Positions 2,747 to 62,797 of a stretch of 64,000 nucleotides of DNA are shown in pieces. The position numbers and the translations under genes are program-made. Within the stretch, counting starts at the first letter, position 1. Each line of letters opens with the position of its first letter. A model generated the notes under the pieces. It was not told where the DNA came from. It made no database searches and was given only the letters and a program-made list of their open reading frames with translations. Source of the stretch: a virus (lineage: Duplodnaviria; Heunggongvirae; Uroviricota; Caudoviricetes); the IMG/VR virus record IMGVR_UViG_2531839524_000004; one strand, written 5' to 3'.

Positions 2747-2795
2747 GTATCTGGATAAGTAAGTACTAATTTACTATCATTGTGGCGCTGACAGG

Positions 2796-3527
2796 ATGTT
2801 AGCGCCTACTTATTTCAAGGATGAAACAATGGGAATTAAAGCTGATATTCAGAGCTTATCTCCCTCTGCACTCATTGAGTTGTTCGTACTGGATATGTCG
2901 AACACAACTTCAGGGGGGAAGCTATTCTTCCACGCCGGAACAAACGAACTGATGCAACCGGTCGTCTGGCAAGGAGTGACATACGAGCCGTGGCCAATAA
3001 AAGCATCAGGCTTTGACAAAACGGGCCAGGGAACGTTGCCACGTCCAAAAATTCAGGTATCGAACTTTGCCGGAACCGTCTCTGCGGAAGTTCAGGCAAA
3101 CGACGATCTTGTTGGCTGCCGCATTATTCGCAAGATGACGCTGGCTCGCTTCCTCGATGCCGTTAATTTTAAAGACGGTAATCCAACAGCAGATCCAAAC
3201 CAACATTTCCCGGATGAAATGTGGTTTATCGAACAGAAAACGCTCGAAACTCATCAGGTTGTCGAGTTTGAGTTGTCCAGTGTGTTCGATTTGATGGGGG
3301 TGCAACTGCCGTATCGTCAGATCATTAAAAACACCTGCCCGTGGAAATACCGAGGGCCAGAATGCGGCTATACCGGTCCATATTTCGACAAAAATAACCA
3401 GCAGACGTCTATGTCTGGTGCTGATTACTGCACAAAACGTTATGACGCCTGTAATGCGCGTCGGAATTATTTTGCCAACGGAGTGATCCATTTTGGCGGG
3501 TTTATTGGAGCTACGCGATATGGGTAA
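2796..3527 (+). CDS. Minor tail protein (lambda gpL-like)
   Basis: 243 aa; C-terminal Cys cluster 'CPWKYRGPECGY...C...C' as in gpL Fe-S proteins; a likelier start is the internal ATG at 2829 preceded by AAGGA. Confidence 0.7.
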   Translation: MLAPTYFKDETMGIKADIQSLSPSALIELFVLDMSNTTSGGKLFFHAGTNELMQPVVWQGVTYEPWPIKASGFDKTGQGTLPRPKIQVSNFAGTVSAEVQANDDLVGCRIIRKMTLARFLDAVNFKDGNPTADPNQHFPDEMWFIEQKTLETHQVVEFELSSVFDLMGVQLPYRQIIKNTCPWKYRGPECGYTGPYFDKNNQQTSMSGADYCTKRYDACNARRNYFANGVIHFGGFIGATRYG

Positions 3528-4317
3528 TAAAGCAATCCCTGAGCTTGGCTCTGATGTTATGCAGCAAATCTATCTCTGCGCCATAAATCGCTACCCTAAT
3601 GAAGCGTGTGGCTTTCTGGTGAGAACTAATGGCGACAAATATCGCTTTATGGAAGCGCGAAATGTTTCGGAGAACCCGCAGAACACTTTTGTAATGCACG
3701 TTGACGACATTATAGCGGCAGAGGATGCAGGTGACGTAATCGCAATCTGGCATTCACATACTGATGAATCAGCAGAAGCATCTGATGCCGATCGTGCAGG
3801 CTGTGAAGCGACGGAAGTTCCGTGGATGATTCTGGCTATTCGCAAGAATGTTGAGGGAGATGCCCCTTTCCATTTTAGCGAGATGAATGTGATCACACCT
3901 GATGGTTTCGAAATGCCATACCTGGGTAGACCGTATGTATTTGGCGTATTCGATTGCTGGATGTTGTGTCGGGACTATTTGAAGCGTGAGTTTAACGTCG
4001 AGCTTAACCCGAACGCACACCTGCATATTCCATCGTGGTACACCGGCGATAACGACATTCTCGACCAGAACTACCGAAACGAAGGGTTGGTACGGCTTGC
4101 GCCTGGAACAGAGCCTCAACGTGGGGACGTCTTCTTTATTCAATACGGGAAAATGCCAGATCACTGCGCGGTTTATATCGGCGATGGAATGATTCTTCAT
4201 CACCAGATCGACCGTCTTAGTTGTCGTGCTTATTACGGCGGAATGTATCAGAAACATACGACGCATCACTTGCGTCACAGAGACTTGCTCAAGGGAGATG
4301 AGACGTGTCTGAGTTAG
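3520..4317 (+). CDS. Tail tip assembly protein (lambda gpK-like; JAMM/MPN plus NlpC/P60 domains)
   Basis: 'AIWHSHTDESAEASDADR' is an HxH...D JAMM-like motif; C-terminal 'FDCWMLCRDY' and 'DHCAVYIGDGMILHH' fit an NlpC/P60 Cys/His pair. ORF track starts at 3493; start trimmed to the ATG at 3520. Confidence 0.7.
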   Translation: MGNKAIPELGSDVMQQIYLCAINRYPNEACGFLVRTNGDKYRFMEARNVSENPQNTFVMHVDDIIAAEDAGDVIAIWHSHTDESAEASDADRAGCEATEVPWMILAIRKNVEGDAPFHFSEMNVITPDGFEMPYLGRPYVFGVFDCWMLCRDYLKREFNVELNPNAHLHIPSWYTGDNDILDQNYRNEGLVRLAPGTEPQRGDVFFIQYGKMPDHCAVYIGDGMILHHQIDRLSCRAYYGGMYQKHTTHHLRHRDLLKGDETCLS

Positions 4318-4898
4318 TTCATGTGCAGCTTGGCGGACCTATGGCTAAACATTTTGGTCGCCACTGGCATCTAAAGGTGCGCAATACAAAACAGGCTCTG
4401 GATTTAATTGAAGCCAACAAGCCTGGGTTTAAAGCATGGATGAAGCGCAATATCAAAACCTATGACAGTTACCACATCCAGATCACCAATAAACAGGGCC
4501 ACAAGTGGTCTGTTGACGAAAGTGAATATCAGATGATGGGGCAGTCTGACAACATTGCCAAAATCCGCATTACACCTGTTCCGCGAGGAAGCGGTGGATC
4601 TGCTTTTGGGTGGTTTCAGACGGTAGTAGGGGCCGCTTTGTTGGTTGTATCGGCGGTAGTGATGCCTGCTTTAGCACCTCTCGGTTTGTCACTGATGATG
4701 GGCGGCATATCACAAATCATATCGCCGCAAGCCACTAACGAAAGTGTGAGACAGGCAGATAACTCGAACTCTTATTATTTCGACGGCCCTCAAAATACAG
4801 AAAACCAGGGCAACCCAGTACAACTTATCTATGGCGAGGAAATTCTGGTTGGCTCACAGGTTGTGAGTTCTTCAATCACGATTGACCAGCTAATGTAA
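4305..4898 (+). CDS. Tail assembly protein (lambda gpI-like)
   Basis: 197 aa with a hydrophobic C-terminal segment, between gpK-like and gpJ-like genes; GTG start overlapping the upstream gene. Confidence 0.55.
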   Translation: MSELVHVQLGGPMAKHFGRHWHLKVRNTKQALDLIEANKPGFKAWMKRNIKTYDSYHIQITNKQGHKWSVDESEYQMMGQSDNIAKIRITPVPRGSGGSAFGWFQTVVGAALLVVSAVVMPALAPLGLSLMMGGISQIISPQATNESVRQADNSNSYYFDGPQNTENQGNPVQLIYGEEILVGSQVVSSSITIDQLM

Positions 4899-4909
4899 AC
4901 AAGGATTTT

Positions 4910-7900
4910 TTGAACATGGAACAGTTCAAGAAGAAAAAGCTACCGCTGTTTATTGCCGGTGCGGGTGGTAAAAAAAGCAGCAAAAGCTCCAGTCGTACAC
5001 CGGTTGAAGCCGACGATACCGTAAATTCTCGTGCAATGGCCGCTATCCTCGATCTTCTTGGGGAAGGGGTAATTGGCGGCTTAGTAAATGGCGCAAGATC
5101 TATTTTTATCGACGATCTGCCGATTGTAAATGAAGACGGTTCCTCCAACTTCAGCGGAATCACATGGGATTTTCGCGACGGTTCACAAGACCAGACTCCA
5201 ATGTCTGGCTTTGATTTCGTTGAAACGCCTAAATCCGTCAATATCCAGTTAAAAAAAACACATTATGTAACGGTTTCAATCGATAACGATGAAGCTGATC
5301 GGGTTCGTGTCATCATGAAGTTTCCTTCTTTGCGAAGCATAGATAAAAAAACTGGTGACACGAACGGTACGACTGTTGAGTACAAGTTCCAGATAGCAAA
5401 TGGCGACTCAACATTTGTAGATGTGGTCGCGGAAGGGGAAAAAAGCGTTGGCATTAAGCTAACAGCAAAGAAGACCGGCGTTTATTACCGTAGCTATGAG
5501 CTGAAGCTGCCTAAGCCTGGACGCGCATACAAGGTTCGTGTAGTCCGTATTACCGATGATAACAGTAGCCAGTATCTCTATAACGATACATGGGTGGATT
5601 CAATCGGGGAAATTGTCGATACACCGATGAACTATCCAAACTCTGTTTTGGTTGGATTGAAGGTAAACTCTGAGCAATTCGGCAGCACCATGCCATCTCG
5701 CTCTTATCTGGTGCGTGGCCTAAAAATTCGAGTACCTTCAAACTATAACGAGTCCAGTAACACTTACGCTGGGGTATGGGATGGCACTTTTAAGCTGTTG
5801 TCTTCTTCGAACCCCGCGTGGATTCTCTTTGATTTGCTGACCAATGCTCGATATGGCCTTGGTCAGTATGTGTCGGAATCTATGATTGACCTTGGCCAGT
5901 TGTACCAGATTGGTCGATATTGTGACGAAGAGGTCGATGATGGCTTTGGTGGCAAAGAGAAACGCTTTGCAATCAATACGCAGATCACCAGTCGACAGGA
6001 CGCATACCGGCTAATTCAGGATATTGCTGGAGCATTCCGCGGCATGGTGTTTTGGGCTGGTGGGATGGTTAACATCATGCAGGATAGCCCATCAGATCCG
6101 GTAATGATGTTTACCAACTCTAACGTCAAAGATGGATTGTTTACCTATAAAGGTTCTGCGCGTAAAGATCGCCCATCCGTTGCGCTCGTAACCTACAACA
6201 ACAAGGAGGACGGTTATAAGCAAAACATCGAGTACGTTGAAGATCAGGACGCAATGCGCCGTTATGGTGAGCGTAAGACAGAAGTCGTAGCATTTGGCTG
6301 TACAAGCCGAGGGCAGGCTCACCGAGTTGGTTTATGGCTTTTATATACCGCCAGAATGGAGTCGGATGTAATTACATTTACTGCCGGCTTAGACGCGTCA
6401 TTTCTGATGCCTGGTGAAACCGTTCTGATTCAGAACAAATATCGCGCAGGCAAACGTAACTCAGGTCGAATTGTGGCGTTTACCAAAAACAGCGTCACAC
6501 TCGATGCGCCTGTGTCGTTAGCCAAAGGCGGCTGCTTTATTCGAATACTGAATCAGGAAGGCAAAATCGTTGAACGCGATGTTCTTGAAACTGGCGAAAA
6601 TATAACAAAAGTTACGTTTTCAAAAGCCCTGTCTTCGGCTGAAACGCCTGTTTTGAACGGCGTCTGGACTATTACAGAACCAGACCTCGAACCTATGCGC
6701 GTTCGCATCGTTAACATCGCGCAGGGGGAAACGCCGGGTAGCTTTGACATCACCGCTGTTGAGAACAATCCGTCTAAATATGAGGCGATCGACAATGGTG
6801 CAACGCTTATCCCGCAAAATACGACGGTATTGGACCCGACTTACTCCAAGCCGTCTAATTTGCAAATCACCGAAGGGACTTATCTCTCAAGCCCTGGCAA
6901 CCTGTCAGTAAAACTGACTGCAACATGGGAAGGGAAATCTCCAGAGTATTGGATCAGTTGGCGACGTTCTGATGAAAACAATGTATCGAACTGGCAATCG
7001 GCGCGTGTAACCGAAGAGCAATACGAAATCGTTAATGTTGCGGAGAATGGACGCTACGACTTCCAGCTGTATGCGGTTTCATTCAACGGTAAAAAAACAG
7101 AGATTATCAGTACCGTTTATCAGGTGCTGGGCACAATGACACCGCCAGATGCCCCAACGTCATTAACGGCCGTTGGAGACTATCGTAATGTGATACTGAA
7201 TTGGGTTAATCCAGATTCGGTAGACCTTGATCACATTAATGTTTACGCGTCCCAGACCAATAATCTGGATACGGCGAAACTGATCGCAGAGTCTGCAAGC
7301 ACCACCTTTACACATGCTGGTCTTGGGGATAGCGAAACGTGGTATTACTGGGTTCGAGCATCGAACAAGCGAGGTATGTTAAGTCCTCCGAACTCAAACT
7401 TGGGTACAGAGGCGACAACTCGCGATGTACTGTCGTTCCTGACTGGCAAAATTACATCTTCCGAGCTTGGTCAGGCTCTGCTTGAGGACATCAACAGCAA
7501 AGCCTCTCAAGAAGCCGTTGACGAGTTAAATGAGCATATCAACCAGAGCGTCGAATCTTTGGAGGGGGCGGTAAACGACGTTAAGGAAGATATAGCTGAA
7601 TTAGATAAGCAGTTCAGCGATAACCTCGCGGATTTTGAAATAAAATTCAACGAGCGTAGCGATGCTTTGGAGAACGCACAAACCGAGCTTAAAGGGGAGG
7701 TTTCGGCAACGATCGACAAGGTCAATGAAGCGTTTGAAAAAATTGATGCTACTGATGCTGCAATTGTTGAAATCGAAAATACAGTATCTGAACACGATAA
7801 AGCTCTCGCTAATACAGTCGAGGCAATAAAGGCTGCAAGAGATGAAGCGGCGGCTCTTATTGCTAAGGAAAGCGAGGCTCGTGTTGAAGGCGATGCTGCA

Positions 7901-9643
7901 AACGCTAAACAACTGGAAGTGTTGCAGTCAACGGTAGAGGAAAGCTCCGCTGCCGTTGAAGAAATGAAAAAGACGGTTGCAGAGGTCGATCGTGCAAGTG
8001 CAGAACTGACTACGAACATTGAGGCGTTAGCCAAAACAAATATTGACCTGGCTCTTCGTCAAGATGAAGACCAGCACAAGCAGATGGTCAATAACGCGAA
8101 GATCGCAACAACACAGAAAACCTTTGCTGATGATATGTCTGCAATGGCTACGAAGGTTGAAGAAATTCGCGTAGAAATTGGCGAAGACATTAAGGCCAGT
8201 ATTCTGGAAGAGTCCACCGCGCGTGCCGATGGCGATGAAGCGTTAGCAAAGCGTGTCACTCAGCTGCAATCTAAGTTTGAAGGAGATATCAGCGCGGCGA
8301 TTAGTACAGAACAGGAGGCTCGTACATCTGCCGATGAAGCTTTGACGAAACAAATAACTCAGCTTGAGTCGAAAGTAAGCAACGATATTGTCGCAGCCAT
8401 TAAGGAAGAGCAAGAAGCCCGAGCAACGGAAGATTCGGCTCTGGCAAGCCAGATCACCCAACTTCAGGCAAAAGTTGATGATGATATTTCTGCTGCAATA
8501 CGCAGTGAGCAGGAGGCTCGTGCGAGCGGAGACTCTGCGTTAGCTAAACAAATAAACCAGCTTCAAGCAAAGGTTGACGGTGATATATCCGCCGCCATCA
8601 CTCAGGAGCAGGAGGCCAGAGCAAGTGCTGACGAGGCGCTCTCACGAGAAATTAACAGCCTGCGGGCGCAGACCGGAACTGACATTGCCGCAGCCGTTGC
8701 TGTAGAGACAAAGGCAAGGACTGACGCTGATAGTGCATTGTCCAGCCAGATTACATCTCTTACAGCAAAAGCTAATGATCTCGAGGCGTCTCTTGCCAAA
8801 GAAACAACGGCTCGTGCAGATGGGGATACCGCTTTAACAAAAGAGGTTTCAAGTTTAAAAGCACAGACTGCGAAAGATATTAGTGCGGCCGTTGCAGTGG
8901 AAACGCAGGCTCGAACTGATGCTGACTCGGCGTTGTCATCTCAGATCACCAAGCTGACCTCTCAATACAAAGAGGATATTAAAGCGGCTGTGGCAACCGA
9001 AACGAAAACGCGTACAGAGCAAGATGCGGCATTGGCGACCCAAATCACAAACTTAGAGTCTCAAACAGCAGCCAACATTTCTGCGGCGGTCACAACTGAA
9101 ACGACAGCGAGAACGCAGGCAGATAATGCTCTAAGTGGGCGAATCGATACTCTGAAAGCAGAGGTGGATGGAAATACCGCGACAATTCAACAGCAGGCAA
9201 CAGCTATTGCTGATACCAACAAAAAAGTGTCAACCGCGTGGACGTTGAAAATGGAGACTTCAACGAGCGGAGGGCAGAAGTATGTTGCCGGTATTGCGCT
9301 TGGTATTGACACCACTGGGCTATCTCAGTTTTTGGTTCAGGCGGACAGGTTTGGTTTGGTCAACTCTGTCAACGGGAAGATCACCACGCCATTTGTTATC
9401 GAAAACAGTATTGCCTATATGAATGGTGCTTATATCAAGGATGGCACAATCACCAATGCAAAGGTAGGCGATCTGCAATCTACCAATTTTGTTAGCGGTA
9501 GATCTGGATGGCGATTCGGTAAAAATGGAACGCTTGAAATAAACGGTAATAGCGGCGGCAATGGGCGATTGGTCATTAATGGTCAGCGGATTGACGTTTA
9601 TGACGATAACAACGTCCTACGAGTAAGAATTGGCCGTCTGTGA
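4910..9643 (+). CDS. Tail tip / central fibre host-specificity protein (lambda gpJ-like) with an inserted coiled-coil repeat array
   Basis: 1577 aa following the K/I-like genes; large N-terminal region typical of gpJ-like proteins; C-terminal half holds tandem 33-aa repeats. Confidence 0.8.
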   Translation: MNMEQFKKKKLPLFIAGAGGKKSSKSSSRTPVEADDTVNSRAMAAILDLLGEGVIGGLVNGARSIFIDDLPIVNEDGSSNFSGITWDFRDGSQDQTPMSGFDFVETPKSVNIQLKKTHYVTVSIDNDEADRVRVIMKFPSLRSIDKKTGDTNGTTVEYKFQIANGDSTFVDVVAEGEKSVGIKLTAKKTGVYYRSYELKLPKPGRAYKVRVVRITDDNSSQYLYNDTWVDSIGEIVDTPMNYPNSVLVGLKVNSEQFGSTMPSRSYLVRGLKIRVPSNYNESSNTYAGVWDGTFKLLSSSNPAWILFDLLTNARYGLGQYVSESMIDLGQLYQIGRYCDEEVDDGFGGKEKRFAINTQITSRQDAYRLIQDIAGAFRGMVFWAGGMVNIMQDSPSDPVMMFTNSNVKDGLFTYKGSARKDRPSVALVTYNNKEDGYKQNIEYVEDQDAMRRYGERKTEVVAFGCTSRGQAHRVGLWLLYTARMESDVITFTAGLDASFLMPGETVLIQNKYRAGKRNSGRIVAFTKNSVTLDAPVSLAKGGCFIRILNQEGKIVERDVLETGENITKVTFSKALSSAETPVLNGVWTITEPDLEPMRVRIVNIAQGETPGSFDITAVENNPSKYEAIDNGATLIPQNTTVLDPTYSKPSNLQITEGTYLSSPGNLSVKLTATWEGKSPEYWISWRRSDENNVSNWQSARVTEEQYEIVNVAENGRYDFQLYAVSFNGKKTEIISTVYQVLGTMTPPDAPTSLTAVGDYRNVILNWVNPDSVDLDHINVYASQTNNLDTAKLIAESASTTFTHAGLGDSETWYYWVRASNKRGMLSPPNSNLGTEATTRDVLSFLTGKITSSELGQALLEDINSKASQEAVDELNEHINQSVESLEGAVNDVKEDIAELDKQFSDNLADFEIKFNERSDALENAQTELKGEVSATIDKVNEAFEKIDATDAAIVEIENTVSEHDKALANTVEAIKAARDEAAALIAKESEARVEGDAANAKQLEVLQSTVEESSAAVEEMKKTVAEVDRASAELTTNIEALAKTNIDLALRQDEDQHKQMVNNAKIATTQKTFADDMSAMATKVEEIRVEIGEDIKASILEESTARADGDEALAKRVTQLQSKFEGDISAAISTEQEARTSADEALTKQITQLESKVSNDIVAAIKEEQEARATEDSALASQITQLQAKVDDDISAAIRSEQEARASGDSALAKQINQLQAKVDGDISAAITQEQEARASADEALSREINSLRAQTGTDIAAAVAVETKARTDADSALSSQITSLTAKANDLEASLAKETTARADGDTALTKEVSSLKAQTAKDISAAVAVETQARTDADSALSSQITKLTSQYKEDIKAAVATETKTRTEQDAALATQITNLESQTAANISAAVTTETTARTQADNALSGRIDTLKAEVDGNTATIQQQATAIADTNKKVSTAWTLKMETSTSGGQKYVAGIALGIDTTGLSQFLVQADRFGLVNSVNGKITTPFVIENSIAYMNGAYIKDGTITNAKVGDLQSTNFVSGRSGWRFGKNGTLEINGNSGGNGRLVINGQRIDVYDDNNVLRVRIGRL
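8186..9174 (+). repeat. Ten tandem 99-bp (33-aa) repeats inside the gpJ-like gene
   Basis: Repeat units such as 'DISAAISTEQEARTSADEALTKQITQLESKVSN' and 'DIVAAIKEEQEARATEDSALASQITQLQAKVDD' recur in-frame. Confidence 0.75.
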
Positions 9644-9736
9644 TGGTGGAAAAAAAATTTTATATCGGTAAGAATAGGTAAGTACTTACTTAATGGCGGG
9701 CAAGGATAGCCCGCCAAATCAAGGAGCATATTCAAC

Positions 9737-12700
9737 ATGTGGTACAGGGAAGGTACTATCACATTTACACAGGGTAGCAATACTCTGGTTGGGGCAGGGA
9801 CAGCCTGGAACGTAACAGCTAATGGGGTGTTGCCTGGGATGATCGTCATTGGCCCCGACAACAAGCTGTATGAGATCAAGCGCGTAACCAGTGATACGAA
9901 CATTGTTCTCTCAGAACCTTATACCGGCGAAACTCAGTCTGAAGTTCCGTGCCGAATCATTACGACCTATGAAGGCGACTTAACACAGTTTAGCGCGCGC
10001 TTTACTGCACTAATGTCGCGTATGTCGGCTGATTCCAAGTCCATGCGCAGTTGGTTGACTGCTCTGGATGAGGTGACAATCGAGCGTGAAGACGGTACAG
10101 AAGTGACCGTTAAGCCGCTAATGCAGATCGTCAACGAGCACAACGAAAACGTTGAGTGGTATAAAAATAACACTGACGCGATTGATGCTGCTGGCGACAA
10201 AGCTCGTGAGGCGGCGGCCAGTGCTGCCGCAGCAGCAGAAAGCGCCAATACCGCTGGAGAAAAAGCCTCTCAAGCGTCTCAAAGTGCATCCGCTGCGGCA
10301 TCCTCACAAAGTGCTGCAAGTGCGAGCGCAACTGCTGCGAAAAAATCTGAAACGAACGCACAAGCCGCAAAAGAAGCGGCAGCAGAATCAGCATCTTTAG
10401 CGTCGGCCAAAGCATCGGAGGCAGCAACATCTGCGTCCAGTGCCTCTGCATCTAAGGATGCAGCCAAAGCATCAGAGACTAACGCTTCATCGAGCGCAAA
10501 CGCGGCAGCATCATCGGCAACAGAAGCTGCAAATTCGTCTAAGGCAGCAAAAACGTCAGAGGCAAACGCAAAAGCATCTGAAACGGCAGCCGAACAGAGT
10601 GCATCGTCTGCAAACAGTTCGAAATCTGCGGCAGAAGCGTCAGCAAGCGCAGCCTCAGCAAGTGCGGATAGTGCTTCATCAAGTGCAACAGCGGCAGGAA
10701 AATCTGCGGATAGCGCATTGTCATCAGCGACAACAGCTACCACAAAAGCGACAGAGGCGACGAGTCAGGCTACAGCTGCTAAAAATTCAGCATCTGCAGC
10801 AAAAACCTCTGAAACAAATGCAAAGACTTCAGAAGACAATGCTGCTTCCTCTAAGGCGGCAGCTGCTGAATCTGCAAGTTCTGCGTCTGCATCAGCCTCC
10901 TCAGCATCCGCTTCAAAAGATGAGGCGACCAAGCAGGCATCAGAAGCGAAGGGCAGTGCTTCAACGGCATCCACGAAAGCAACAGAGGCGGCAGGCAGTG
11001 CGACGGCTGCATCTCAGAGCAAAACTGCTGCTGAATCCGCTGCGACCCGTGCGGAAGCTGCTGCTGATCGTGCTGAAGAGATTGCCGGTGCAGTTGCGAT
11101 GGAAGACGCAAGCCTTACAACTAAAGGTGTTGTGAAACTTAGCAGTGCTGTCGATAGCACCAGTGAATCGCTGGCCGCAACGCCAAAAGCAGTTAAAGCA
11201 GCCAATGACAATGCGAATAGCAGGGTGCCATCTAACCGAAAAATTAACGGAAAAGCACTGACTGCGGATATAACATTAACGCCGAAAGATATTGGTACTT
11301 TAAATTCAGTAACGATGTCTTTCTCTGGCGGGGCTGGGTGGTTCAAACTGGCTACGGTTACCATGCCACAAGCGAGTTCCATCGTTTACATCACATTGAT
11401 TGGTGGTGCTGGATATAATGTTAACTCCCCTATGCAGGCTGGTATATCTGAACTTGTTCTTCGTGCGGGAAATGGAAATCCAAAAGGTCTTACTGGTGCG
11501 TTATGGCGAAGGACATCGGTTGGATTTACTAATTTTGCATGGGTGAATACATCCGGCGATACATATGATATTTATGTTGAGATTGGCAATTATGCGACGA
11601 GTGTAAATGTCCACTGGGATTGTACTGCAAATGCGTCAGTTTCTATTTATACATCGCCAACATATTCAGCGAGTAAGCCTGCCAGCGTTACCGATGGTGT
11701 TGTTTATACGATGTATAGCTCACATCAGAAACCTACGCCATCAGATATTGGAGCACTGCCAACAACCGGAGGAACAGTTTCTGGTCCGTTGTCTGTTACA
11801 GGCGGATTAACTGGTTCATTGAATGGTAATGCAAGTACAGCAACGAAATTACAGACGACAAGAACTATCGGCGGCGGGAGCTTTGATGGTACTGCAAATA
11901 TTAATTTGCCAGGTGTTAATACGACTGGTAATCAGAATACAACAGGTAATGCGGCTACTGCTACGAAGTTGCAGACTGCGCGTACTATTAATGGGGTGTC
12001 GTTTGACGGTTCGGCAAATATTTCCTTGTCACCAGCAAATATAGGTTGCCCGGCATCTCCTACTGGTTGGTTAACTACAGGAAGTAATGGCGGAGCAATA
12101 ACAACAGCCCAGTTAGTGACGTTATTGCAAAATAATGGAGCCTTTAACACAAAGGCATGGATTGCTCGATGTGCGTGGGCCTATGCCAATAGCGCAACCA
12201 TACCAAATAGTGAAACTGGTTGTGGCGTTATTCCATTGGCAGGAGCTGTTATAGAAGTATTTAATAACGGTAGTAGTTCAAATAATTATACGATCCGCAT
12301 AACAACGGCCACAACGACAAGTGTTTCCGGTGCTCTCACTAATGCGGAGTTTATCTATGTATTTAATGGCACAGATTATTCTCCAGGATGGCGAAGAGTA
12401 TATAACACGAAAAACAAACCAACTGCATCTGACGTTGGTGCATTACCTCTTACCGGTGGTACATTATCTGGAGGTTTGACATCTTCTGGTGAGATCGTTT
12501 CAAAATATGCAAATGGTTTCCGCATTGCTTACGGTAGCTTTGGGTTCTTTATCCGTAATGACGGCGGCAGCACATATTTCATGCTAACAGCATCAGGAGA
12601 TACGTTAGGTTCATGGAACGGCTTGCGACCGATTACAATTAATAATACTAGCGGGGTTGTGTCTATTGGTAATGGACTAAATGTTACTGGTGGCGTAAAT

Positions 12701-13645
12701 GGTAGTTTGAACGGTAATGCTTCAACAGCTACGAAGTTGCAAACAGCGAGAAACATCAATGGTGTTAAGTTTGATGGCTCAGGCGATATCAACATTAATA
12801 CATTGGTATCTCGTGGCCGAGTTACGGCGTTAAGCGGCTCTACTCAAGGCACTGCTGGCATTCAAATGTACGAGGCGTACAACAATAGCTATCCGACCAC
12901 GTATGGCAACGTATTGCACATGAAAGGTGCGAGTGCTGCTGGCGAGGGTGAGTTGCTTATTGGCTGGAGTGGTACGAGCGGTGCACATGCGCCGGTTTTC
13001 ATTCGCTCCCGAAGAGATACCACTGATGCAGCATGGTCAGCGTGGGCACAGGTATATACCGCTAAGGATTCAATCCCTGGTGTGAATACAACCGGTAATC
13101 AGAACACTACTGGTAATGCTGCCACCGCCACAAAATTGCAGACAGCAAGGAAAATTGCTGGTGTGGCGTTTGATGGCTCTGCCGATATTACTTTGACTGC
13201 GGCTAACCTTAATGCCTATACGAAAACAGAGGTAACAAACCTTCTAAGTTCCTATGTGAAGAGCAGTTCTCTTCCAAGCATGACTGTGCGAACTTCCTCT
13301 GTTTCAGGTGGGGATATGGGCATGAGTTTGTCCGCATTCATTAGCCACCTTAAATCAAATGGGGCGTTTAGCAAAAGTTATTGGATTGGCTTTGGCGATG
13401 CTATGGGATTCAATGCTGGCAGTATCAACAATATAACGGGATTTGGTGCTGTAGAATTAGCAGAATCCATAATCGAAGTTTTTAATCTACCTAATGGTGA
13501 TTATACAATTCGTTTAACGACGTCACACAAAGCTGACTACGGTGGGATTACAAACGCAATCCTCGTTTATCACTACCGCAGTAATAGAAACCCGGCAGGT
13601 CAATGGCTTAAATTTGCCGGTACTCTTGGGGCTACAAACAACTGA
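9737..13645 (+). CDS. Tail fibre protein
   Basis: 1302 aa; Ala/Ser-rich low-complexity segment, then four copies of 'GNA(S/A)TATKLQT(A/T)R.I.G..FDGS' and two copies of 'GVNTTGNQNTTGNA', motifs typical of phage fibre repeats; more AT-rich distal part. Confidence 0.75.
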   Translation: MWYREGTITFTQGSNTLVGAGTAWNVTANGVLPGMIVIGPDNKLYEIKRVTSDTNIVLSEPYTGETQSEVPCRIITTYEGDLTQFSARFTALMSRMSADSKSMRSWLTALDEVTIEREDGTEVTVKPLMQIVNEHNENVEWYKNNTDAIDAAGDKAREAAASAAAAAESANTAGEKASQASQSASAAASSQSAASASATAAKKSETNAQAAKEAAAESASLASAKASEAATSASSASASKDAAKASETNASSSANAAASSATEAANSSKAAKTSEANAKASETAAEQSASSANSSKSAAEASASAASASADSASSSATAAGKSADSALSSATTATTKATEATSQATAAKNSASAAKTSETNAKTSEDNAASSKAAAAESASSASASASSASASKDEATKQASEAKGSASTASTKATEAAGSATAASQSKTAAESAATRAEAAADRAEEIAGAVAMEDASLTTKGVVKLSSAVDSTSESLAATPKAVKAANDNANSRVPSNRKINGKALTADITLTPKDIGTLNSVTMSFSGGAGWFKLATVTMPQASSIVYITLIGGAGYNVNSPMQAGISELVLRAGNGNPKGLTGALWRRTSVGFTNFAWVNTSGDTYDIYVEIGNYATSVNVHWDCTANASVSIYTSPTYSASKPASVTDGVVYTMYSSHQKPTPSDIGALPTTGGTVSGPLSVTGGLTGSLNGNASTATKLQTTRTIGGGSFDGTANINLPGVNTTGNQNTTGNAATATKLQTARTINGVSFDGSANISLSPANIGCPASPTGWLTTGSNGGAITTAQLVTLLQNNGAFNTKAWIARCAWAYANSATIPNSETGCGVIPLAGAVIEVFNNGSSSNNYTIRITTATTTSVSGALTNAEFIYVFNGTDYSPGWRRVYNTKNKPTASDVGALPLTGGTLSGGLTSSGEIVSKYANGFRIAYGSFGFFIRNDGGSTYFMLTASGDTLGSWNGLRPITINNTSGVVSIGNGLNVTGGVNGSLNGNASTATKLQTARNINGVKFDGSGDININTLVSRGRVTALSGSTQGTAGIQMYEAYNNSYPTTYGNVLHMKGASAAGEGELLIGWSGTSGAHAPVFIRSRRDTTDAAWSAWAQVYTAKDSIPGVNTTGNQNTTGNAATATKLQTARKIAGVAFDGSADITLTAANLNAYTKTEVTNLLSSYVKSSSLPSMTVRTSSVSGGDMGMSLSAFISHLKSNGAFSKSYWIGFGDAMGFNAGSINNITGFGAVELAESIIEVFNLPNGDYTIRLTTSHKADYGGITNAILVYHYRSNRNPAGQWLKFAGTLGATNN

Positions 13646-13848
13646 TTTAGGGATTATTTATATGGCTGTGTGGTTTAAAAATGCGATTTCACAGCCGCAA
13701 TCATAGGGATATATTAGTGAGTTACTAGATGCGAATATGAACAACCGTTAAACGGTATATGTATAGGTAGGTAAGTATATACCTACAATTAAAAGGAGAA
13801 GTGTGATATAAATCCGCCATCCCGATTTGACTTTTCACGGAGGAAAAC

Positions 13849-14172
13849 ATGTCGAACGAGATGGCGGGCGTTACAACAGAGCAAGTTGAGCGTATTGCCG
13901 CGATCGTTGCTCGGGAGGTTGTTGGCAAATTAGGCAAAGAGCTACGTGAAGAAATTGGCCAGGAGGTCAATGATCAGCTGAAAACCTACTTTGGTGATAT
14001 GACCCCGGCGCAACATAGTATTCAACACTCCAACCTGGACAAGCTCCTTAACCGGTTAGATTCCATCTCCAGTGGGTTCTTTGGCGGCATTGTTTCTAAA
14101 ATAACGTCGTTCATTATTACTGCACTGCTTTTGGGGTTAGCCGCGTATGGCGTAAAAAATGGACTGCAATAA
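13849..14172 (+). CDS. Holin-like small membrane protein (putative)
   Basis: 107 aa with a single C-terminal TM segment 'ITSFIITALLLGLAAYGV'; immediately precedes the putative endolysin with overlapping ends. Topology is atypical for a holin. Confidence 0.35.
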   Translation: MSNEMAGVTTEQVERIAAIVAREVVGKLGKELREEIGQEVNDQLKTYFGDMTPAQHSIQHSNLDKLLNRLDSISSGFFGGIVSKITSFIITALLLGLAAYGVKNGLQ

Positions 14173-14185
14173 CAGGAGATCAAGG

Positions 14186-14878
14186 ATGAAGACTCCGAGA
14201 GGCATTCGTAATAATAACCCCGGTAATCTTGATAAAGGATCACCGTGGCAAGGTCTGGTTGCGAATCCAGATGAACCGCGCTTTTGCACGTTTAAAGACC
14301 CTGTTTGGGGGATTCGTGCGTTGGCGGTGACTCTAATTACCTACCACGACAAACGTCGCGCAAAAGACGGCTCAAGTATCGATACCATTCGTGAAGTTAT
14401 TGAACGTTGGGCACCGCCGAATGAAAACAACACTGACGCCTACATTAATGAGGTGTCTAAAGCCGTTGGTGTAACCGCAGACATGATCATCGATCTGCAT
14501 GATTACGACATTCTTCGACCTTTGGTTGAGGCAATCATTCGCCATGAGAATGGGCGAGGTCCGCTAAAAACGCTGAACACCTGGTATGCGGCAGAAGTTA
14601 TTGAGGAAGGTCTGCGTCGAGCTGGCGTCGTTAAGCCGGTGAAAACCGTGAAGGCTGTTCCTGTAACTAAAGAAACAGCAGGCGCAACTGTCACAGCAGG
14701 TATTGGTCTGGCGCAGCTGGCCGATGTTATGCCGCAGGTTTCCGCTGCTATGGATAAAGCACAAGGTCATATCTCTAGCGGGGATACAGTACGCATCATC
14801 TTCGGTATTGCCACTATTGTTGTGGCTGGATTTATCGCCTGGTCGCAGGTAAGAAGACACCAGAAAGGGATGGTCTAA
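14186..14878 (+). CDS. Putative endolysin / peptidoglycan hydrolase with C-terminal membrane segment
   Basis: 'GIRNNNPGNL' N-terminal motif, which I associate with phage cell-wall hydrolases; located between holin-like and spanin genes; ATG at 14186 is preceded by AGGAG. Confidence 0.5.
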   Translation: MKTPRGIRNNNPGNLDKGSPWQGLVANPDEPRFCTFKDPVWGIRALAVTLITYHDKRRAKDGSSIDTIREVIERWAPPNENNTDAYINEVSKAVGVTADMIIDLHDYDILRPLVEAIIRHENGRGPLKTLNTWYAAEVIEEGLRRAGVVKPVKTVKAVPVTKETAGATVTAGIGLAQLADVMPQVSAAMDKAQGHISSGDTVRIIFGIATIVVAGFIAWSQVRRHQKGMV

Positions 14879-14879
14879 T

Positions 14880-15131
14880 ATGCTAGGCAGCCTGATGACA
14901 AAGCTCAAAGTTGCTTTGATTACGCTGGCTGCCGTTCTTTTCGTTCTGGTCGGCGCTTACACGATGGGCGGAAATGCGGCGCGACGAGCAATGGAAGAGA
15001 AGGCAAAACAGGAAGACAGGAAACGACTTCAAAGCACAGTGGACGTCAAAAATGAAACACTTGATGAGTTACGGCGCAAGGATGCTTCTACTGTTCATCA
15101 TGAGTTGCACAATAAGTGGTTGCGTGATTAA
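14880..15131 (+). CDS. i-spanin (Rz-like)
   Basis: 83 aa with N-terminal TM 'LKVALITLAAVLFVLVGAYTMG' then charged coiled-coil-like region; directly after the endolysin. Confidence 0.5.
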   Translation: MLGSLMTKLKVALITLAAVLFVLVGAYTMGGNAARRAMEEKAKQEDRKRLQSTVDVKNETLDELRRKDASTVHHELHNKWLRD

Positions 15132-15282: not shown

Positions 15283-15456
15283 TAAAAGCGGAATTTTCTA
15301 ACATAAAATTTGCATATTATTAGAGCACAAGGTAGATTTGAAGCATGGATGTCAAGTAAATCATACCTTGTTTTAATAAATCGACGCATACTCGTAGCCT
15401 CTAAACCGACAAGGTCGCCGCTATGACATAAAGTTATTACCGGCTAAGGTGGAAAC

Positions 15457-16632: not shown

Positions 16633-16640
16633 TTCCTAAA

Positions 16641-49500: not shown

Positions 49501-49546
49501 ATGCAAACTGACTGCGGCTCGTTCCGCAGTCATATTTCATAGTCGT

Positions 49547-50081: not shown

Positions 50082-51294
50082 AAAGCAGTTTGAGACTATT
50101 GGAAAGGATCTCAATCATCTTGATATTTTCAGGCGTCAAATTCTGCGAAAGTTCGGTTATCTTGTTGATAATGTTCTGTTTGGCATCAATTTCCCCAGCT
50201 TTCTCATCTGGTTTTTTGGGTTCGATGTCTTCAGGTTTTGGCGGTGCGACTTTGAGTTTTGGATTGCGGCTGTGAATCTGGATATAGATCGACCGCCCAC
50301 GCTTAATCTCGCTGTATTCGAGATAGCCCAAATCTTGGAGAGCTTTTAAGCCGTTACGTATAGTCTGATTCTGCGAGCTGACATTCCTGCTACTCAAATT
50401 GAGTCGCGCACGCAATCGAGCAAGCGATACCGGCGCAGGCTTGGTTGGAAGACTTTCGATGAAGGTGTACAGAGCCTGTGCTGTTTCTTTGCGTGGTAGC
50501 TTATTGATAACCTTTAACTGCAAAAGAACCTTATGGTCAAAGCGATATAGTTCGGCCAGCTTCGGTTCTGCATAGAACACCACCGTATCTTTCTGCTCGT
50601 TGTAGTCCACGCTATTGATGAGGTGCACCATCAGAAGCGAGATCTTGTTAGAGCCGTCGACGTTCTTTTCTTCATACGTTCTCTGGAAAGACAGAGTTGT
50701 ACGCATGATCTTCAAAAGACTGTTTGTAAGCCGGTCGCGGAGTGTTTTGCGGATCTGTGACGATGGATAGCCACAAAACTTAGCAAATTTCGTGATGCTT
50801 AACTCGACACGACCGTTAGGTTCGCCGTATTCTGCCAGCGAACGCACAACGCCCACCCACGTTTTGAAATCATGATCCATGTCGAGACGAGGACCGGTTA
50901 TCTTGATATCGGAATAGCCTTCAGAACGGGCTACTTCGAGCTGGACAAGCTCCTTTGAAGCATCGATCTCATTTGGCTTGTTACGTTTACTGTATTTTGT
51001 TCCCTTAAGCGTGGGGACGAACAACCCCAGTCGCATCAACGCAATTGGTTGGACTGTATTGTTGCTATTAGGGACAAGTTCCCCTGTGTACAATTCAAGG
51101 GAACCTTCTTCAAAGTTGTCGATGTTATCTTCTACTTCTTTGTTATTTTTACCTTTTTTATTTTTTGTGGACATGTGGACACCTTTGTCATTCAACCGCT
51201 GACAGCATACTTGATTTGCCGCTGACAGAATACCAAAAACAGTTGGCAGCATACGGTGAACCGCTGACAGACTATCAATTACCGCTGACAGCAT
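50080..51294 (-). CDS. repA: Replication initiator protein (iteron-binding RepA-type)
   Basis: 404-aa protein whose gene is bracketed by iterons on both sides, overlapping its start and stop; a P1 RepA-like arrangement. Confidence 0.7.
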   Translation of the reverse strand: MLSAVIDSLSAVHRMLPTVFGILSAANQVCCQRLNDKGVHMSTKNKKGKNNKEVEDNIDNFEEGSLELYTGELVPNSNNTVQPIALMRLGLFVPTLKGTKYSKRNKPNEIDASKELVQLEVARSEGYSDIKITGPRLDMDHDFKTWVGVVRSLAEYGEPNGRVELSITKFAKFCGYPSSQIRKTLRDRLTNSLLKIMRTTLSFQRTYEEKNVDGSNKISLLMVHLINSVDYNEQKDTVVFYAEPKLAELYRFDHKVLLQLKVINKLPRKETAQALYTFIESLPTKPAPVSLARLRARLNLSSRNVSSQNQTIRNGLKALQDLGYLEYSEIKRGRSIYIQIHSRNPKLKVAPPKPEDIEPKKPDEKAGEIDAKQNIINKITELSQNLTPENIKMIEILSNSLKLL

Positions 51295-51296
51295 AC
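51194..51296. repeat. Four to five iterons upstream of and overlapping the repA start
   Basis: 'AACCGCTGACAGCATAC' (51194), 'GCCGCTGACAGAATACC' (51218), partial 'TTGGCAGCATAC' (51243), 'AACCGCTGACAGACTATC' (51259), 'TACCGCTGACAGCATAC' (51280). Confidence 0.8.
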
Positions 51297-51299
51297 ATG

Positions 51300-51420
51300 A
51301 ACATGACTTCAGACCAGGCGTGGCGCGGCTTACAGCGATCGGGGATCTTATTTGATCTATATAAGGATCTATCTATGGATCTCTTTATTAGGATCTATCC
51401 TGTGGATATGTGAATAATTA
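51300..51420. promoter_or_regulatory. Putative replication origin core: GATC-rich AT-rich segment with a DnaA-box-like sequence
   Basis: Six GATC sites within ~60 bp (five as (A/G)GGATCT) and 'TGTGGATAT' at 51401-51409 (8/9 match to the DnaA-box complement), adjacent to the upstream iterons. Confidence 0.5.
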
Positions 51421-51495
51421 AAACAGGCATTTACTACCTTCGGCGCACCTGGTGGGTTATCGTTGCCTCGGCTAACAATCACAGAAAAATGACAT

Positions 51496-52140: not shown

Positions 52141-52394
52141 CCCTCCAGATCGTATATTGGCGTAGATAGAATCTACGCCTCCTCAAAATAGCTCTCATAG
52201 CGTTCTACAGTGATTCTGTCTTATTTTTAGTCATATAGACAAGCAAACTTGCGCCACAATAAATAGGTATATACTTACTTATAAATTTTGTATATTAAGG
52301 CGCTCGTTTCATTCCTAACATACCGTTATGCATAGTTGTTTACCTCATCATTGCTCTTAGAATTTGTATCAAAATAACCACAAAGGAAAAATAC

Positions 52395-56938: not shown

Positions 56939-57011
56939 TTTCATTGATAGGTAAGTGCTTATCTATTAACATGGGCCACTATATTTAGTGGCCCTCTTTA
57001 TTTGGTGATAC

Positions 57012-60653: not shown

Positions 60654-61523
60654 ATGAACTTTACCAAACTGACTGACCCCCTGAAACTTGCCACCGATCG
60701 TCTCATTGGATTTAAGCCAGAACCATATGAGTTGCATGAAGGTCATGGTGTAGCTACTGAAAGTATTTACAAGATGGTCGATCAGTTTCATGAACTCTTC
60801 CAGCATCCGAGACGCGTTATGCCGACACCAGAGCTGCTTCGTCTCCGTGCAAGCCTGATTCATGAAGAAGCTGTAGTGGAAGGTATTCCAGCCGCAATGA
60901 ATGGGGATATTGAGCAACTGCTGGATGCAATGGCCGACTTTTTATACGTTGGTGTTGGTACGATGGTCGCCATCAAAGGTGGTATTTCTACCGGCATGAC
61001 CTATTACACGCAGGAACAGAGCATTGATCGCTTTATGCAGACAATTTTTGTGCCCGGTAACACTGTTTTCGATGATATGGCAATGCCATTTCAGGAAGCT
61101 CGTGAGGCGTCATATATGCTCGAAGAGCTGGCAGATAAACTTGAGAACAAGACTGTTAAGGATTCTGAGCTGATTCAGGAACTGCGCCGTGTCATGAACA
61201 AAATCTATGTGGCGTGCATGATGACCTATCGACTGGCTGATTTCCTCGGTATCAATGTAGTCGAGCTGGTTGGCGAAATTCATCGGTCTAACATGACAAA
61301 ATTATGGCCTGCTGATGTCGAGGAACGTCGCCAGGCTGTGGCCAACTGCAAATACGACTCTTCAGACCTGGGATTTCGCCATGCTGATGGTACCGATAAG
61401 ATGATCGGTTTTCGAATTTCCGATGGAAAGATTCTGAAGTCTCCAACCTATAGTGATGTCGATTTATCCTCCTTTGTTGAGCAAGCTAAAGCCTCAGCAA
61501 TGTACGGAATGATCAAAAAATAA
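60654..61523 (+). CDS. Putative MazG-like / all-alpha nucleoside triphosphate pyrophosphohydrolase (tandem domains)
   Basis: Two segments with the 'EE..E...D' pattern ('LIHEEAVVEG...EQLLDAMADFLY' and 'LEELADKLE...RLADFLG'); located in the nucleotide-metabolism block. Inference only. Confidence 0.4.
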   Translation: MNFTKLTDPLKLATDRLIGFKPEPYELHEGHGVATESIYKMVDQFHELFQHPRRVMPTPELLRLRASLIHEEAVVEGIPAAMNGDIEQLLDAMADFLYVGVGTMVAIKGGISTGMTYYTQEQSIDRFMQTIFVPGNTVFDDMAMPFQEAREASYMLEELADKLENKTVKDSELIQELRRVMNKIYVACMMTYRLADFLGINVVELVGEIHRSNMTKLWPADVEERRQAVANCKYDSSDLGFRHADGTDKMIGFRISDGKILKSPTYSDVDLSSFVEQAKASAMYGMIKK

Positions 61524-61666
61524 TTGTAGGTAGTTATCTATCTATGTATATTGTGTTAGCGCGTTAAATTCCTGAAACAACTATTCGTTTTGGTGGCCTA
61601 TGGCCACCATTTTTTTATCTATCTGGCCTTGTTCCCTCAATAAATGTAAACTCACGCAATGAATAA

Positions 61667-62797
61667 GTGATTACTTATCTTTGTGAGGTTTTTGTGTCAC
61701 TCCTTTTGAATCGTGAGCATACGAACGGTCAGGTAACAAACGCATCGTATGCAAAAGTTATTGAGACGGTGCTTAAAAGCGGCGTGCAGGCTGATGATCG
61801 CACAGGCACTGGTACTTTAAGCACCTGCTACGTTCCCTCTTACTACATGCTTACTGGTGGGACTGTGCCGCTTATTTCTGGAAAGGCGGTAAATCTTAAG
61901 CCACTGCTTGTCGAACTTGAGTGGTATCTGAAAGGCACGGGCAACATCCAATTTCTCAAGGATAACGGCGTTAAGATTTGGGATGCATGGGCCGATGAGA
62001 ATGGCGATTTGGGGCCAGTTTACGGTAAGCAGTGGCGTCGATGGGAAGATACCCGCATCGTGAGCCATAGTGAATATCTGAGCAAGATCGCTACTTTCCG
62101 TGAACGCGGGTACAAAGTCGAGGGATACCTAGGTATCAGTGAAGATCGCGTAGTGCTGTCCCGTGAAATCGATCAGCTACAGCGTATTGTCGATACACTG
62201 CGCACGAACCCTACCGATCGTCGCATCATGCTTAACGCATGGAACGTAGGCGAGCTTGAGGATATGAAACTGCCACCTTGCCACTTTGTCTTCTCTTTGT
62301 GGAGTCGTGAGCTTGATTTTGAAACCCGTTTAACGATGGCAACTGACATTGGTCTTCAACACAGTCGCCTCGGTTACGAGTCTATCTACACCAAGATGCT
62401 ATACGATCTGGAGATGGACGGCAGTGTTACTGAAGCTGAACTGGATGAACTTGGAATCCCCAAACGCATCCTCAACTCCTGCCTCGTACAGCGTAGCGTA
62501 GACACTTTTGTTGGTATGCCATTCAATATTGCTGGCTATGGCATTCTCACTCATTTTCTCGCGAAGATTACGGGTCACATGGCCGGTGCATTTGTGCATT
62601 TTGGCTTTGACGTGCATTTGTACAATAACCACATGGAAAGTGTGCGTGAGCTAATGCAACGACAGGCTCCAGAGCATTCAGATCCGGTCGTTATATTCCC
62701 TAATGAATGGTCTGAGCTGGATGATTTCAAATGGGACGAGATTCTTATTCTTGGCTATGCCCCTCTACCGTGGATCAAGGTTCCAGTGGCGGTGTGA
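61667..62797 (+). CDS. thyA: Thymidylate synthase (ThyA family) with two insertions
   Basis: 'DDRTGTGTLS', 'IWDAWADENGDLGPVYGKQWRRW', 'LPPCH', 'QRSVDTFVGMPFNIAGY', 'HLYNNHM' match ThyA almost residue for residue; true start is probably downstream of 61667. Confidence 0.9.
   Translation: MITYLCEVFVSLLLNREHTNGQVTNASYAKVIETVLKSGVQADDRTGTGTLSTCYVPSYYMLTGGTVPLISGKAVNLKPLLVELEWYLKGTGNIQFLKDNGVKIWDAWADENGDLGPVYGKQWRRWEDTRIVSHSEYLSKIATFRERGYKVEGYLGISEDRVVLSREIDQLQRIVDTLRTNPTDRRIMLNAWNVGELEDMKLPPCHFVFSLWSRELDFETRLTMATDIGLQHSRLGYESIYTKMLYDLEMDGSVTEAELDELGIPKRILNSCLVQRSVDTFVGMPFNIAGYGILTHFLAKITGHMAGAFVHFGFDVHLYNNHMESVRELMQRQAPEHSDPVVIFPNEWSELDDFKWDEILILGYAPLPWIKVPVAV

Follow-up and report, generated by a model that had tools for sequence, protein, structure and literature searches.

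A genome-wide palindrome as a candidate repressor operator in SSU5/pHCM2-type phage-plasmids

What does a palindrome do that recurs in front of gene after gene of one phage-plasmid? The question is raised by IMG/VR record IMGVR_UViG_2531839524_000004, a 64-kb stretch (45.6% G+C) of an Escherichia coli phage-plasmid of the SSU5/pHCM2 type; we call the whole stretch the window, and all coordinates refer to it unless another genome is named. The original prediction had listed 13 palindromes with the core TAAGTA...TACTTA and taken them for the operator or promoter element of a phage regulator, marking a co-regulated gene set. Their intergenic position, their conservation and their overlap with likely promoters support this. 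On balance, we lean slightly towards a more specific reading, namely that the palindromes are operators of one sequence-specific dimeric lysogenic repressor of the element.

The window has close and distant relatives to compare with. The E. coli phage-plasmids CMS-2020a, PhiR41_1 and Cyrano (a plasmid of strain LF82) are 95-97% identical to it, Salmonella phage SSU5 about 81% and Klebsiella phage-plasmids about 79%. Elements of this type are frequent in Escherichia, Klebsiella, Salmonella, Enterobacter and Yersinia, and the core proteins that we tested are encoded on about 800 PLSDB plasmids. According to the literature on this SSU5-type family, it includes pHCM2 of Salmonella Typhi and pMT1 of Yersinia pestis, and antibiotic-resistance genes can be among its cargo.

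Occurrence, anatomy and conservation of the palindrome

A TAAGTA-NN-TACTTA-type palindrome is present at all 13 predicted positions, and the window holds at least four more sites (Table 1). Allowing up to two mismatches, TAAGTANNTACTTA occurs 26 times in the window where 1.94 hits are expected, a count reached in none of 100 shuffles; GGTAAGTACTTACC, with up to three mismatches, gives 13 hits against 1.36. In intergenic DNA only, a matrix trained on these same sites finds 15 site clusters, compared with 0.7 in dinucleotide shuffles. TAAGTA/TACTTA is at the same time the most intergenic-enriched hexamer of the window, with 31 intergenic copies where 4.5 are expected (z=12.5) and 17 coding ones. 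Equal frequency in coding DNA, which would have refuted the prediction, is clearly not what is seen. The same hexamer heads an unbiased count in Cyrano and in SSU5.

A scoring matrix trained on the window sites leads to the same picture, also in the other genomes, which were left out of training. Hits scoring at least 10 are intergenic in 26 of 28 cases in the window, as are 38 of 43 matrix hits in Cyrano, 42 of 49 in SSU5 and 40 of 47 in the Klebsiella element pJN2-26. Only 9% of the window, and 11-13% of each genome, is non-coding. Three apparent coding hits (61664, 18769 and 29864) lie upstream of real gene starts or inside a spurious open reading frame (ORF). The 64 kb of the window hold 15-18 clusters of sites and a complete genome, at about 105 kb, holds about 30; all over that genome they stand in front of structural, lysis, replication and nucleotide-metabolism operons.

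Sites tend to lie 3-40 nucleotides (nt) past the preceding stop codon. The predicted distance of 30-80 base pairs (bp) to the next start codon holds roughly, since 33-85 nt is common, and fails as a strict range, the measured values running from 2 to 205 nt. In some cases the start codon is only 2-18 nt away, or a terminator follows at once.

Alignment of about 29 sites per genome by expectation maximization yielded the consensus (A)TA(A/G)GTAAGTACTTAC(C/T)TA(T). Sites are built from a 14-mer, TARGTA-NN-TACYTA. In the majority of them two such 14-mers overlap with a 4-bp shift, which creates an 18-mer; the complete palindrome, (A)TARGTAAGTACTTACYTA(T), is often 18-22 bp long, and the symmetry often reaches 22-26 bp. 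The flanks are symmetric too: the left one is A-rich, the right one T-rich, and a TAnnnT-like hexamer starts from the outermost TA on each side. A directional -10 element fused to the palindrome (TACTTATCAT) was considered and rejected, because it is just as common on one side as on the other and so belongs to the palindrome itself. In the searchable literature on SSU5 promoters and repressors, and on the motif sequence itself, we found no description of this motif. Resemblances to Fur, RcsAB, NarL and GntR-type boxes carry no weight in our reading.

When the DNA upstream of orthologous genes is aligned between the window, Cyrano, SSU5 and pJN2-26, the palindrome stands out as a conserved island between diverged flanks, most clearly before the holin gene, gene 23517, cobS, sbcD and thyX. 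A Moellerella plasmid carries the motif before orthologous genes, and the motif also occurs in an IMG/VR contig of 103 kb, in which the structural proteins share only 30-55% amino-acid identity with those of SSU5.

An Acinetobacter relative keeps the architecture of the site with a changed half-site. In an Acinetobacter baumannii AB-group phage-plasmid (NZ_CP156934, positions 1-50000), the top intergenic k-mers are AGTCAG, TCAGTCA and ATCAGTCA, and a variant palindrome, TCAGTCAnTACTGACTGA (TCAGTCA..TGACTGA), occupies the same intergenic positions, with 13 sites in 50 kb, one of them within the spacer of TTGAAA-17-TACAAT. This element retains the synteny of the XRE gene (see below), its small neighbour, cobT-cobS and dnaE, as well as a gene for a 92-amino-acid (aa) protein after the helicase and, near terS, a homologue (45% identity) of a winged-helix protein.

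Do such sequences act as DNA or as hairpins, that is, as RNA-processing or terminator stems or as cruciforms? The palindromes are self-complementary, lie between genes of long co-directional operons and in some places sit beside GC hairpins and T-runs, all of which would suit a hairpin. Yet in six arm pairs followed through the four genomes there were zero compensatory double changes. At position 3:16 of the 18-mer, an R/Y pair that varies often, we counted 14 A:T, 18 G:C, 11 G:T and 19 A:C combinations, matching the expectation for independence, with A:C mismatches as common as G:T. It is the specific sequence that is conserved over about 30 sites per genome, not the pairing, and the stems are AT-rich, 7-9 bp long and followed by no T-run. 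Because compensatory changes are absent, the half-sites must be read independently, as TARGTA on duplex DNA. The palindromes are double-stranded DNA protein sites in which the sequence of each half is selected, and a hairpin function is very improbable.

We also met similar sequences outside the family. Ten IMG/VR phage contigs without detectable protein similarity to SSU5, seven of them at about 41% G+C and three at 34-36%, likewise contain (TAAG)n(TACT/CTTA)n palindromes. Some of these contigs pair them with TCAGTCAG..CTGACTGA palindromes 47 nt apart. The three of low G+C content may be Acinetobacter elements.

Overlap with promoter-like sequences and expression in the lysogen

We scored -35/spacer/-10 combinations within 50 nt on either side of each palindrome, in the direction of the gene and in the mirror direction. 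The palindrome reads alike both ways, which makes the mirror direction a fair control. The score was higher in the gene direction for 15 of 18 sites of the window (p=0.0013) and for 23 of 28 sites of SSU5 (p=0.0009), and the same held in Cyrano (p=0.0035) and Klebsiella (p=0.008), i.e. in four genomes out of four. The sites thus overlap promoter-like, sigma-70-like sequences, and the palindrome is centred at about -19 to -32, or else beyond the start site. In the predicted promoter at 44709, conserved in three genomes, the palindrome lies in the spacer; at 56944 and 2752 its left arm serves as the -35; at 26985 the right arm does, a geometry kept in SSU5 and Klebsiella; and at 29822 the palindrome lies just past the start site (Table 1). 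Such a variable register within the core promoter argues for repression by occlusion, since an activator would need a fixed geometry. Being intergenic, conserved as islands, free of arm covariation, overlapped by gene-directed promoter-like sequences and placed before operons genome-wide, the sites fit the regulatory element that had been predicted.

In the repressor reading, each operator would overlap or abut a sigma-70 promoter at the head of a lytic transcription unit, and the units under control would include those for tail, tail fibre, lysis, replication, recombination, nucleotide metabolism and tRNAs. Once bound, the repressor would keep RNA polymerase off the promoter and perhaps also stop transcription that enters from upstream. 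Some 30 co-directional operons would in this way stay silent during plasmid replication of the element, and loss of the repressor on induction would release all of them together.

Expression data exist for Cyrano: a study of strain LF82 (PMC9928086) gives RNA-seq values per gene in five conditions (its supplementary file 2). In the lysogen grown in lysogeny broth (LB), every plus-strand gene behind motif sites is at background. CYRAN_56, the orthologue of the unit at 44709, stands behind TTGAAA-17-TATCAT and is nevertheless at the detection floor, with the plasmid at about 5.5 copies. The strongly expressed genes of Cyrano are minus-strand or accessory ones, together with small candidate regulators: the XRE protein CYRAN_45, the 92-aa protein CYRAN_117 and an S24-peptidase-like protein. 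Between adjacent plus-strand genes, the transcript level tends to drop across motif sites (B6: mean -0.88, against +0.41 without a motif). In 6-h macrophage samples, CYRAN_12, CYRAN_56 and CYRAN_60, which directly follow sites, increase by 2.5-3.7 log2 units when set against the gene upstream of each, as would fit promoters at those sites.

The same data can be read the other way round, with the palindrome as an activator box of a phage-specific promoter class resembling the late promoters of phage P1, which have an Lpa box at -22 and a -10 element without a -35. The candidate activator would be a MarR-like winged-helix protein encoded just 5' of terS, just as lpa precedes pacA in P1; made after induction, it would recruit host RNA polymerase to the lytic operons. 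The P1 record annotates seven late promoters as AAGT(T/G)ACTT, 4 nt, TAnnnT, and their half-sites AAGT/ACTT are identical to ours; in both elements the repeat lies between -35 and -10 of structural, lysis and packaging genes, and in both a small DNA-binding gene directly precedes the terminase genes. At many sites, A-rich DNA stands where a -35 would be expected and a TAnnAT hexamer runs from the last TA of the palindrome, and sigma-70 consensus promoters are depleted in positions 1-20000 of the window (9, compared with 29.7 expected from shuffles).

The winged-helix protein itself (SSU5_130/CYRAN_123; 88 aa, directly 5' of terS) is modelled with a mean predicted local distance difference test score (pLDDT) of 82 as MarR/PadR-like. 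Its recognition helix is invariant, and its synteny with terS is kept even at 32% identity, where the motif lies between the two genes. The gene is silent in the lysogen and up in the macrophage samples, in which the genes right after some sites are up as well.

Several observations nonetheless make an activator box rather unlikely. We found no Lpa (PF25716) homologue in the four genomes, neither by tblastn nor with a hidden Markov model built from 42 Lpa relatives (no hit better than E ~1). The -10-like hexamers at the ends of the palindrome are equal on both sides, which reflects symmetry and not a directional promoter. Relative to the best promoter elements, the palindrome takes positions from about -32 to beyond the start site, whereas the 9-bp repeat of P1, with 1-bp spacing, keeps a fixed 4 nt to the -10; the repeat described here has 4-bp spacing (14-mer) and is often extended to an 18-mer. 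Several sites come with 9-10 of 12 consensus matches in -35 and -10 at 16-17 bp spacing, which should require no activator, and yet they are silent in the lysogen. Others lie 2-18 nt from a start codon or right in front of a terminator. Finally, the recognition helix of the winged-helix protein is almost unchanged in Acinetobacter, although the half-site differs there. This last point, and its background expression in the lysogen, also make the protein an unlikely lysogenic repressor; we keep it as an activator candidate only.

Exact AAGTnACTT is confined to the centres of three long palindromes in each genome. The one at 18745-18802 is a near-perfect palindrome of 58 bp with the centre TAAGTnACTTA, which contains the P1 Lpa -22 box; it is followed by a T-run, and its RNA fold reaches -30.5 kcal/mol. 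In SSU5 and Cyrano, one of the three copies falls at the ends of the sequence record, just 5' of terS. These long palindromes could be module-boundary terminators, packaging sites or origins.

To return to the lysogenic repressor, a number of observations weigh against it. A recognisable -35 is missing at many sites, and the identity of the half-sites with the P1 activator box has already been described. The drop in transcript level across sites is significant in one of the five conditions, and nearby hairpins could explain part of it. In the LF82 data, predicted promoter strength does not correlate with expression, nor does the motif score. About 30 sites at about 5.5 plasmid copies would call for a fairly abundant repressor. 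As to its identity, the recognition helix of the XRE protein of Klebsiella, YKNPNILSLIKKGR, carries four substitutions though the motif there is unchanged, and two further conserved small DNA-binding candidates, the winged-helix protein and the 92-aa protein, are encoded outside the window.

Candidate binding proteins

The most likely binder would be an XRE-type, lambda-repressor-like helix-turn-helix protein encoded on the minus strand (Table 1). An integrase gene (30382-31485) converges on its 3' end with a 6-bp overlap, and a 70-aa gene (32119-32331, plus strand) diverges from it. The Pfam family HTH_19 matches below its cut-off (19.7 against 30.2 bits), PHROG assigns a transcriptional regulator, and in a single-sequence structural model (pLDDT 75) the N-terminal half is similar to lambda repressor and to the controller proteins of restriction-modification systems; there is no S24 peptidase domain. 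A sequence search of the PDB with this protein and with a 71-aa "putative regulator" returned nothing, and Pfam and PHROG scans of about 50 small proteins brought up no further regulators. Two-fold symmetric operators of 14 bp are typical of the lambda-repressor-like family, as in phages 434 and P22.

Expression and synteny are consistent with such a role. In the LF82 lysogen, CYRAN_45 is expressed about ten times above the local background. A site lies 32 nt 5' of the XRE start in all enterobacterial versions, being kept in pHCM2, pMT1 and Klebsiella, and the weak copy in the window suggests that the protein may regulate its own gene; the corresponding switch region of Acinetobacter holds three TCAGTCAG-type sites. 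The divergent arrangement with the small gene is preserved in pHCM2, pMT1, Klebsiella and Acinetobacter. The protein is 66% identical in pHCM2, 65% in pMT1, 56% in Klebsiella and 48% in Acinetobacter, with conserved synteny, and also occurs in Moellerella. Together with the adjacent integrase it is found on 865 plasmids, whose taxon profile is the same as that of a family core protein (798 plasmids).

The recognition helix is identical (YKNANNLSLIKSGK) in E. coli, Salmonella and Yersinia and becomes FKRPNVLSMIKSGE in Acinetobacter, where the half-site differs. Helix and half-site thus change together in one comparison, Enterobacterales against Acinetobacter.

The XRE gene is absent only from phage SSU5, which one paper calls virulent and which has kept its sites. 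We had considered this absence as an argument that the XRE protein is not the binder, and dropped it: the XRE and integrase genes belong to the core of the plasmid forms, and SSU5 has the look of a recent deletion derivative, since its winged-helix protein matches those of pHCM2 and pMT1 at 100% identity and both plasmids carry the XRE gene. Retention of the sites in SSU5 is for this reason uninformative about XRE.

The sites could also be operators or roadblocks of a repressor other than XRE, which would then act only at the immunity switch. A 92-aa putative ribbon-helix-helix protein (CYRAN_117/SSU5_123) or a conserved host factor would be examples. CYRAN_117 reaches about 12 times background in the lysogen; it belongs to a minus-strand operon divergent from the operon that runs from ParB to terminase, with the motif in the shared promoter region (Cyrano 105108), and it is conserved in SSU5, Klebsiella, Moellerella and, by synteny, Acinetobacter. 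All sites are kept in SSU5, which has no XRE gene, yet this counts for little in a probable recent deletion derivative. Moreover, the 92-aa protein is predicted to face DNA with three residues of its N-terminal strand, and two of them differ between homologues (H/Y/S and Q/P/K/A) although the motif does not change. We know of no host factor of this specificity, and in the Acinetobacter element the half-site has changed together with the phage proteins. We consider a binder of this kind quite unlikely.

Among the proteins compared, the XRE protein seems the best candidate binder, and it carries roughly half of the confidence that we place in a lysogenic repressor as such. We infer both that the bound protein represses rather than activates and that it is this one.

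The fullest version of the lysogenic repressor is possible, if doubtful. One small lambda-repressor-like protein would silence the whole phage-plasmid of about 105 kb through about 30 operators, built of 4-bp-phased TAAG/CTTA units in overlapping registers and acting both as occluders and as roadblocks, and the protein and its sites would have co-evolved from TAAGTA to TCAGTC between Enterobacterales and Acinetobacter. If true, this would amount to an undescribed global immunity regulon in a clinically important family of mobile elements, pMT1 and pHCM2 included. How SSU5-type elements remain silent as plasmids and switch to lysis is essentially unstudied. The motif provides a genome-wide, testable map of lytic transcription units together with three candidate regulators, and the Acinetobacter half-site offers a natural specificity variant.

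Known dispersed-site systems, site map and neighbouring features

Dispersed operators have precedents. Phage P1 is a plasmid prophage as well, and one repressor, C1, is thought to control many scattered operators over lytic promoters (ssb, lpa, ref and mat; the P1 record distinguishes mono- and bivalent operators). The C1 operator is an asymmetric 17-mer, ATTGCTCTAATAAATTT, whereas the site described here is a palindrome, and tblastn found no C1 homologue. P1 also hands its late genes over to the activator Lpa, while here the site in front of the replication operons is also found before the structural and lysis operons.

The stoperators of mycobacteriophage L5, bound by gp71, are about 30 asymmetric 13-mers that act in an orientation-dependent manner, lie in short intergenic regions and have been proposed to block both initiation and elongation. 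Copy number and largely co-directional genome are similar here, and the drops in expression across sites are compatible with this type of action. L5 sites are, however, asymmetric and point one way, whereas ours are symmetric with their flanks and mostly lie over promoter-like sequence.

With the Cro/CI-type switches of 434, P22 and lambda, the element shares a two-fold symmetric operator (14-17 bp in those phages) and a helix-turn-helix repressor gene divergent from a small gene, with operators in between. Lambdoid operators are confined to the immunity region (OL, OR), in contrast to the roughly 30 genome-wide copies found here.

In the IncP plasmid RK2, the palindromic operators of KorB and KorA are repeated a dozen times or more around the molecule, at variable distances from promoters. 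The logic of coordinated silencing is shared, and KorB is a ParB-family protein; the two ParB-like proteins of the SSU5-type family are at background in the lysogen, and nothing ties them to the motif.

We regard the dispersed C1 operators of P1 and the L5 stoperators as the nearest functional analogues, and the late -22 box of P1 as the nearest analogue in sequence. If the lysogenic repressor holds, the family would be a third independent case, after P1 and L5, in which immunity acts through dozens of dispersed sites instead of one switch.

Table 1. Palindromic sites of the window and the gene of the candidate binder
Feature	Position	Strand	Context
GATAAGTAAGTACTAATTTACTATC	2754-2778		between tail M-like and tail L-like genes; within predicted promoter TGGATA-17-TATCAT (2752-2780); conserved in Cyrano, SSU5 and Klebsiella
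AATAGGTAAGTACTTACTTAAT	9673-9694		5' of tail-fibre gene (start 9737); followed by GC hairpin 9695-9715
TAGGTAGGTAAGTATATACCTAC	13764-13786		5' of holin/lysis cassette (start 13849); conserved island amid diverged DNA
TGATAAGTAAGTAACTACCTACC	18885-18907		heads replication module (gene start 18919)
GATAAGTAGATGATTACTTATTAG	23455-23478		5' of gene 23517; conserved TGTAAGAAT, an extended -10-like element, 9 nt downstream
GATAAGTATTTACTTACTTATC	26977-26998		heads non-coding/tRNA region; right arm is -35 of predicted TTTACT-17-TAAGAT (26985-27013)
AAGATAAGTATGCACATACCTATCTT	29860-29885		additional site; 26-bp palindrome; directly 3' of near-consensus TTGATC-16-TATAAT (29822-29849); 40 nt before likely glutaredoxin start 29926
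GGTAAGTGCTTACC	31898-31911		weakest of the predicted sites; 32 nt 5' of minus-strand XRE start, in divergent switch region 31867-32118
ATGATAAGTAACTACTTATCAT	34553-34574		single 14-mer core, 10/11 arm pairs; 5' of cobS-like gene (34634)
GATAGATAATAAGTAAGTACTGATCTATC	41187-41215		5' of gene for gp32-like single-stranded DNA-binding protein (41299)
TATATAAGTACTTACTTAT	44716-44734		fills spacer of predicted TTGAAA-17-TATTAT (44709-44737, plus strand); right after terminator 44681-44697; 5' of 44767
TAAGTAAACACTAA	48430-48443		additional site, weak; 18 nt before start codon 48462
TAAGTTAGTATCTACCTA	48757-48774		additional site; 2 nt before start codon 48777; orthologous Cyrano genes 60-62 up in macrophage samples
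AATAGGTATATACTTACTTAT	52262-52282		5' of sbcD-like gene (52395); conserved TGnCATAAT-type -10 about 10 nt downstream
TTGATAGGTAAGTGCTTATCTATTAA	56944-56969		-35 and spacer of predicted TTGATA-17-TAACAT (56944-56972, plus strand); 5' of nrdA (57012); followed by hairpin 56973-56994
TAGGTAGTTATCTATCTA	61527-61544		additional site, weak; 3 nt past stop of MazG-like gene
ATAAGTGATTACTTAT	61663-61678		16 nt before likely thyX start 61694; 3' of terminator 61592-61608
XRE-type (lambda-repressor-like helix-turn-helix) protein	31480-31866	-	128 aa; leading candidate binder

Nearly all genes of the window are on the plus strand. From its start they follow the order tape-measure, tail, tail fibre, lysis, partition, replication, tRNA cluster and integrase/XRE module, continuing with cobT/cobS, DNA polymerase III alpha, recombination, RepA with iterons, sbcCD, nrdAB, thyX and dihydrofolate reductase.

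GC-rich hairpins directly follow three of the motif sites (2784-2806, 9695-9715 and 56973-56994), two of them with T-rich runs behind. They could be 5' stabilising stems, or attenuators placed between promoter and gene.

A second palindrome, AAACAAnTTGTTT, occurs with at most one mismatch at 16740, 19671, 32398, 45868 and 59390, 20-45 nt before parA, the dnaB-like helicase gene, cobT-like, gene 45897 and nrdB, in regions without the TAAGTA motif. SSU5 and Cyrano have two further copies before terS. A second regulator probably binds this palindrome.

Some gene starts need revision. The longest ORFs at 29848-30171, 61667-62797 and 2796-3527 probably begin too early, the likely true starts being 29926 for glutaredoxin, 61694 for thyX and a position near 2838 for the tail L-like gene. 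The minus-strand ORF 18668-18874 is probably no gene.

The stretch 26968-28488 is non-coding over 1.5 kb and contains tRNA-Asn, Tyr, Thr and Ser (27746-28296). It begins with the motif site at 26977 and its predicted promoter; no gene is called in its first 770 nt, which may encode a non-coding RNA.

About 13 iterons (ACCGCTGACAGCATA) are found at 49501-50079, downstream of minus-strand repA (50080-51294). Upstream of repA, at 51295-51495, a stretch rich in GATC/GGATCTAT is origin-like in look.

Outside the window, CYRAN_114 of Cyrano (42781-43302 in the sequence record used) matches over its full length the Salmonella FljA 'repressor of phase-1 flagellin' family (PF03614, E=1e-80). We set this protein aside as a regulator of the element, since it probably has an accessory function directed at the host; it is kept in the SSU5 and Klebsiella elements.

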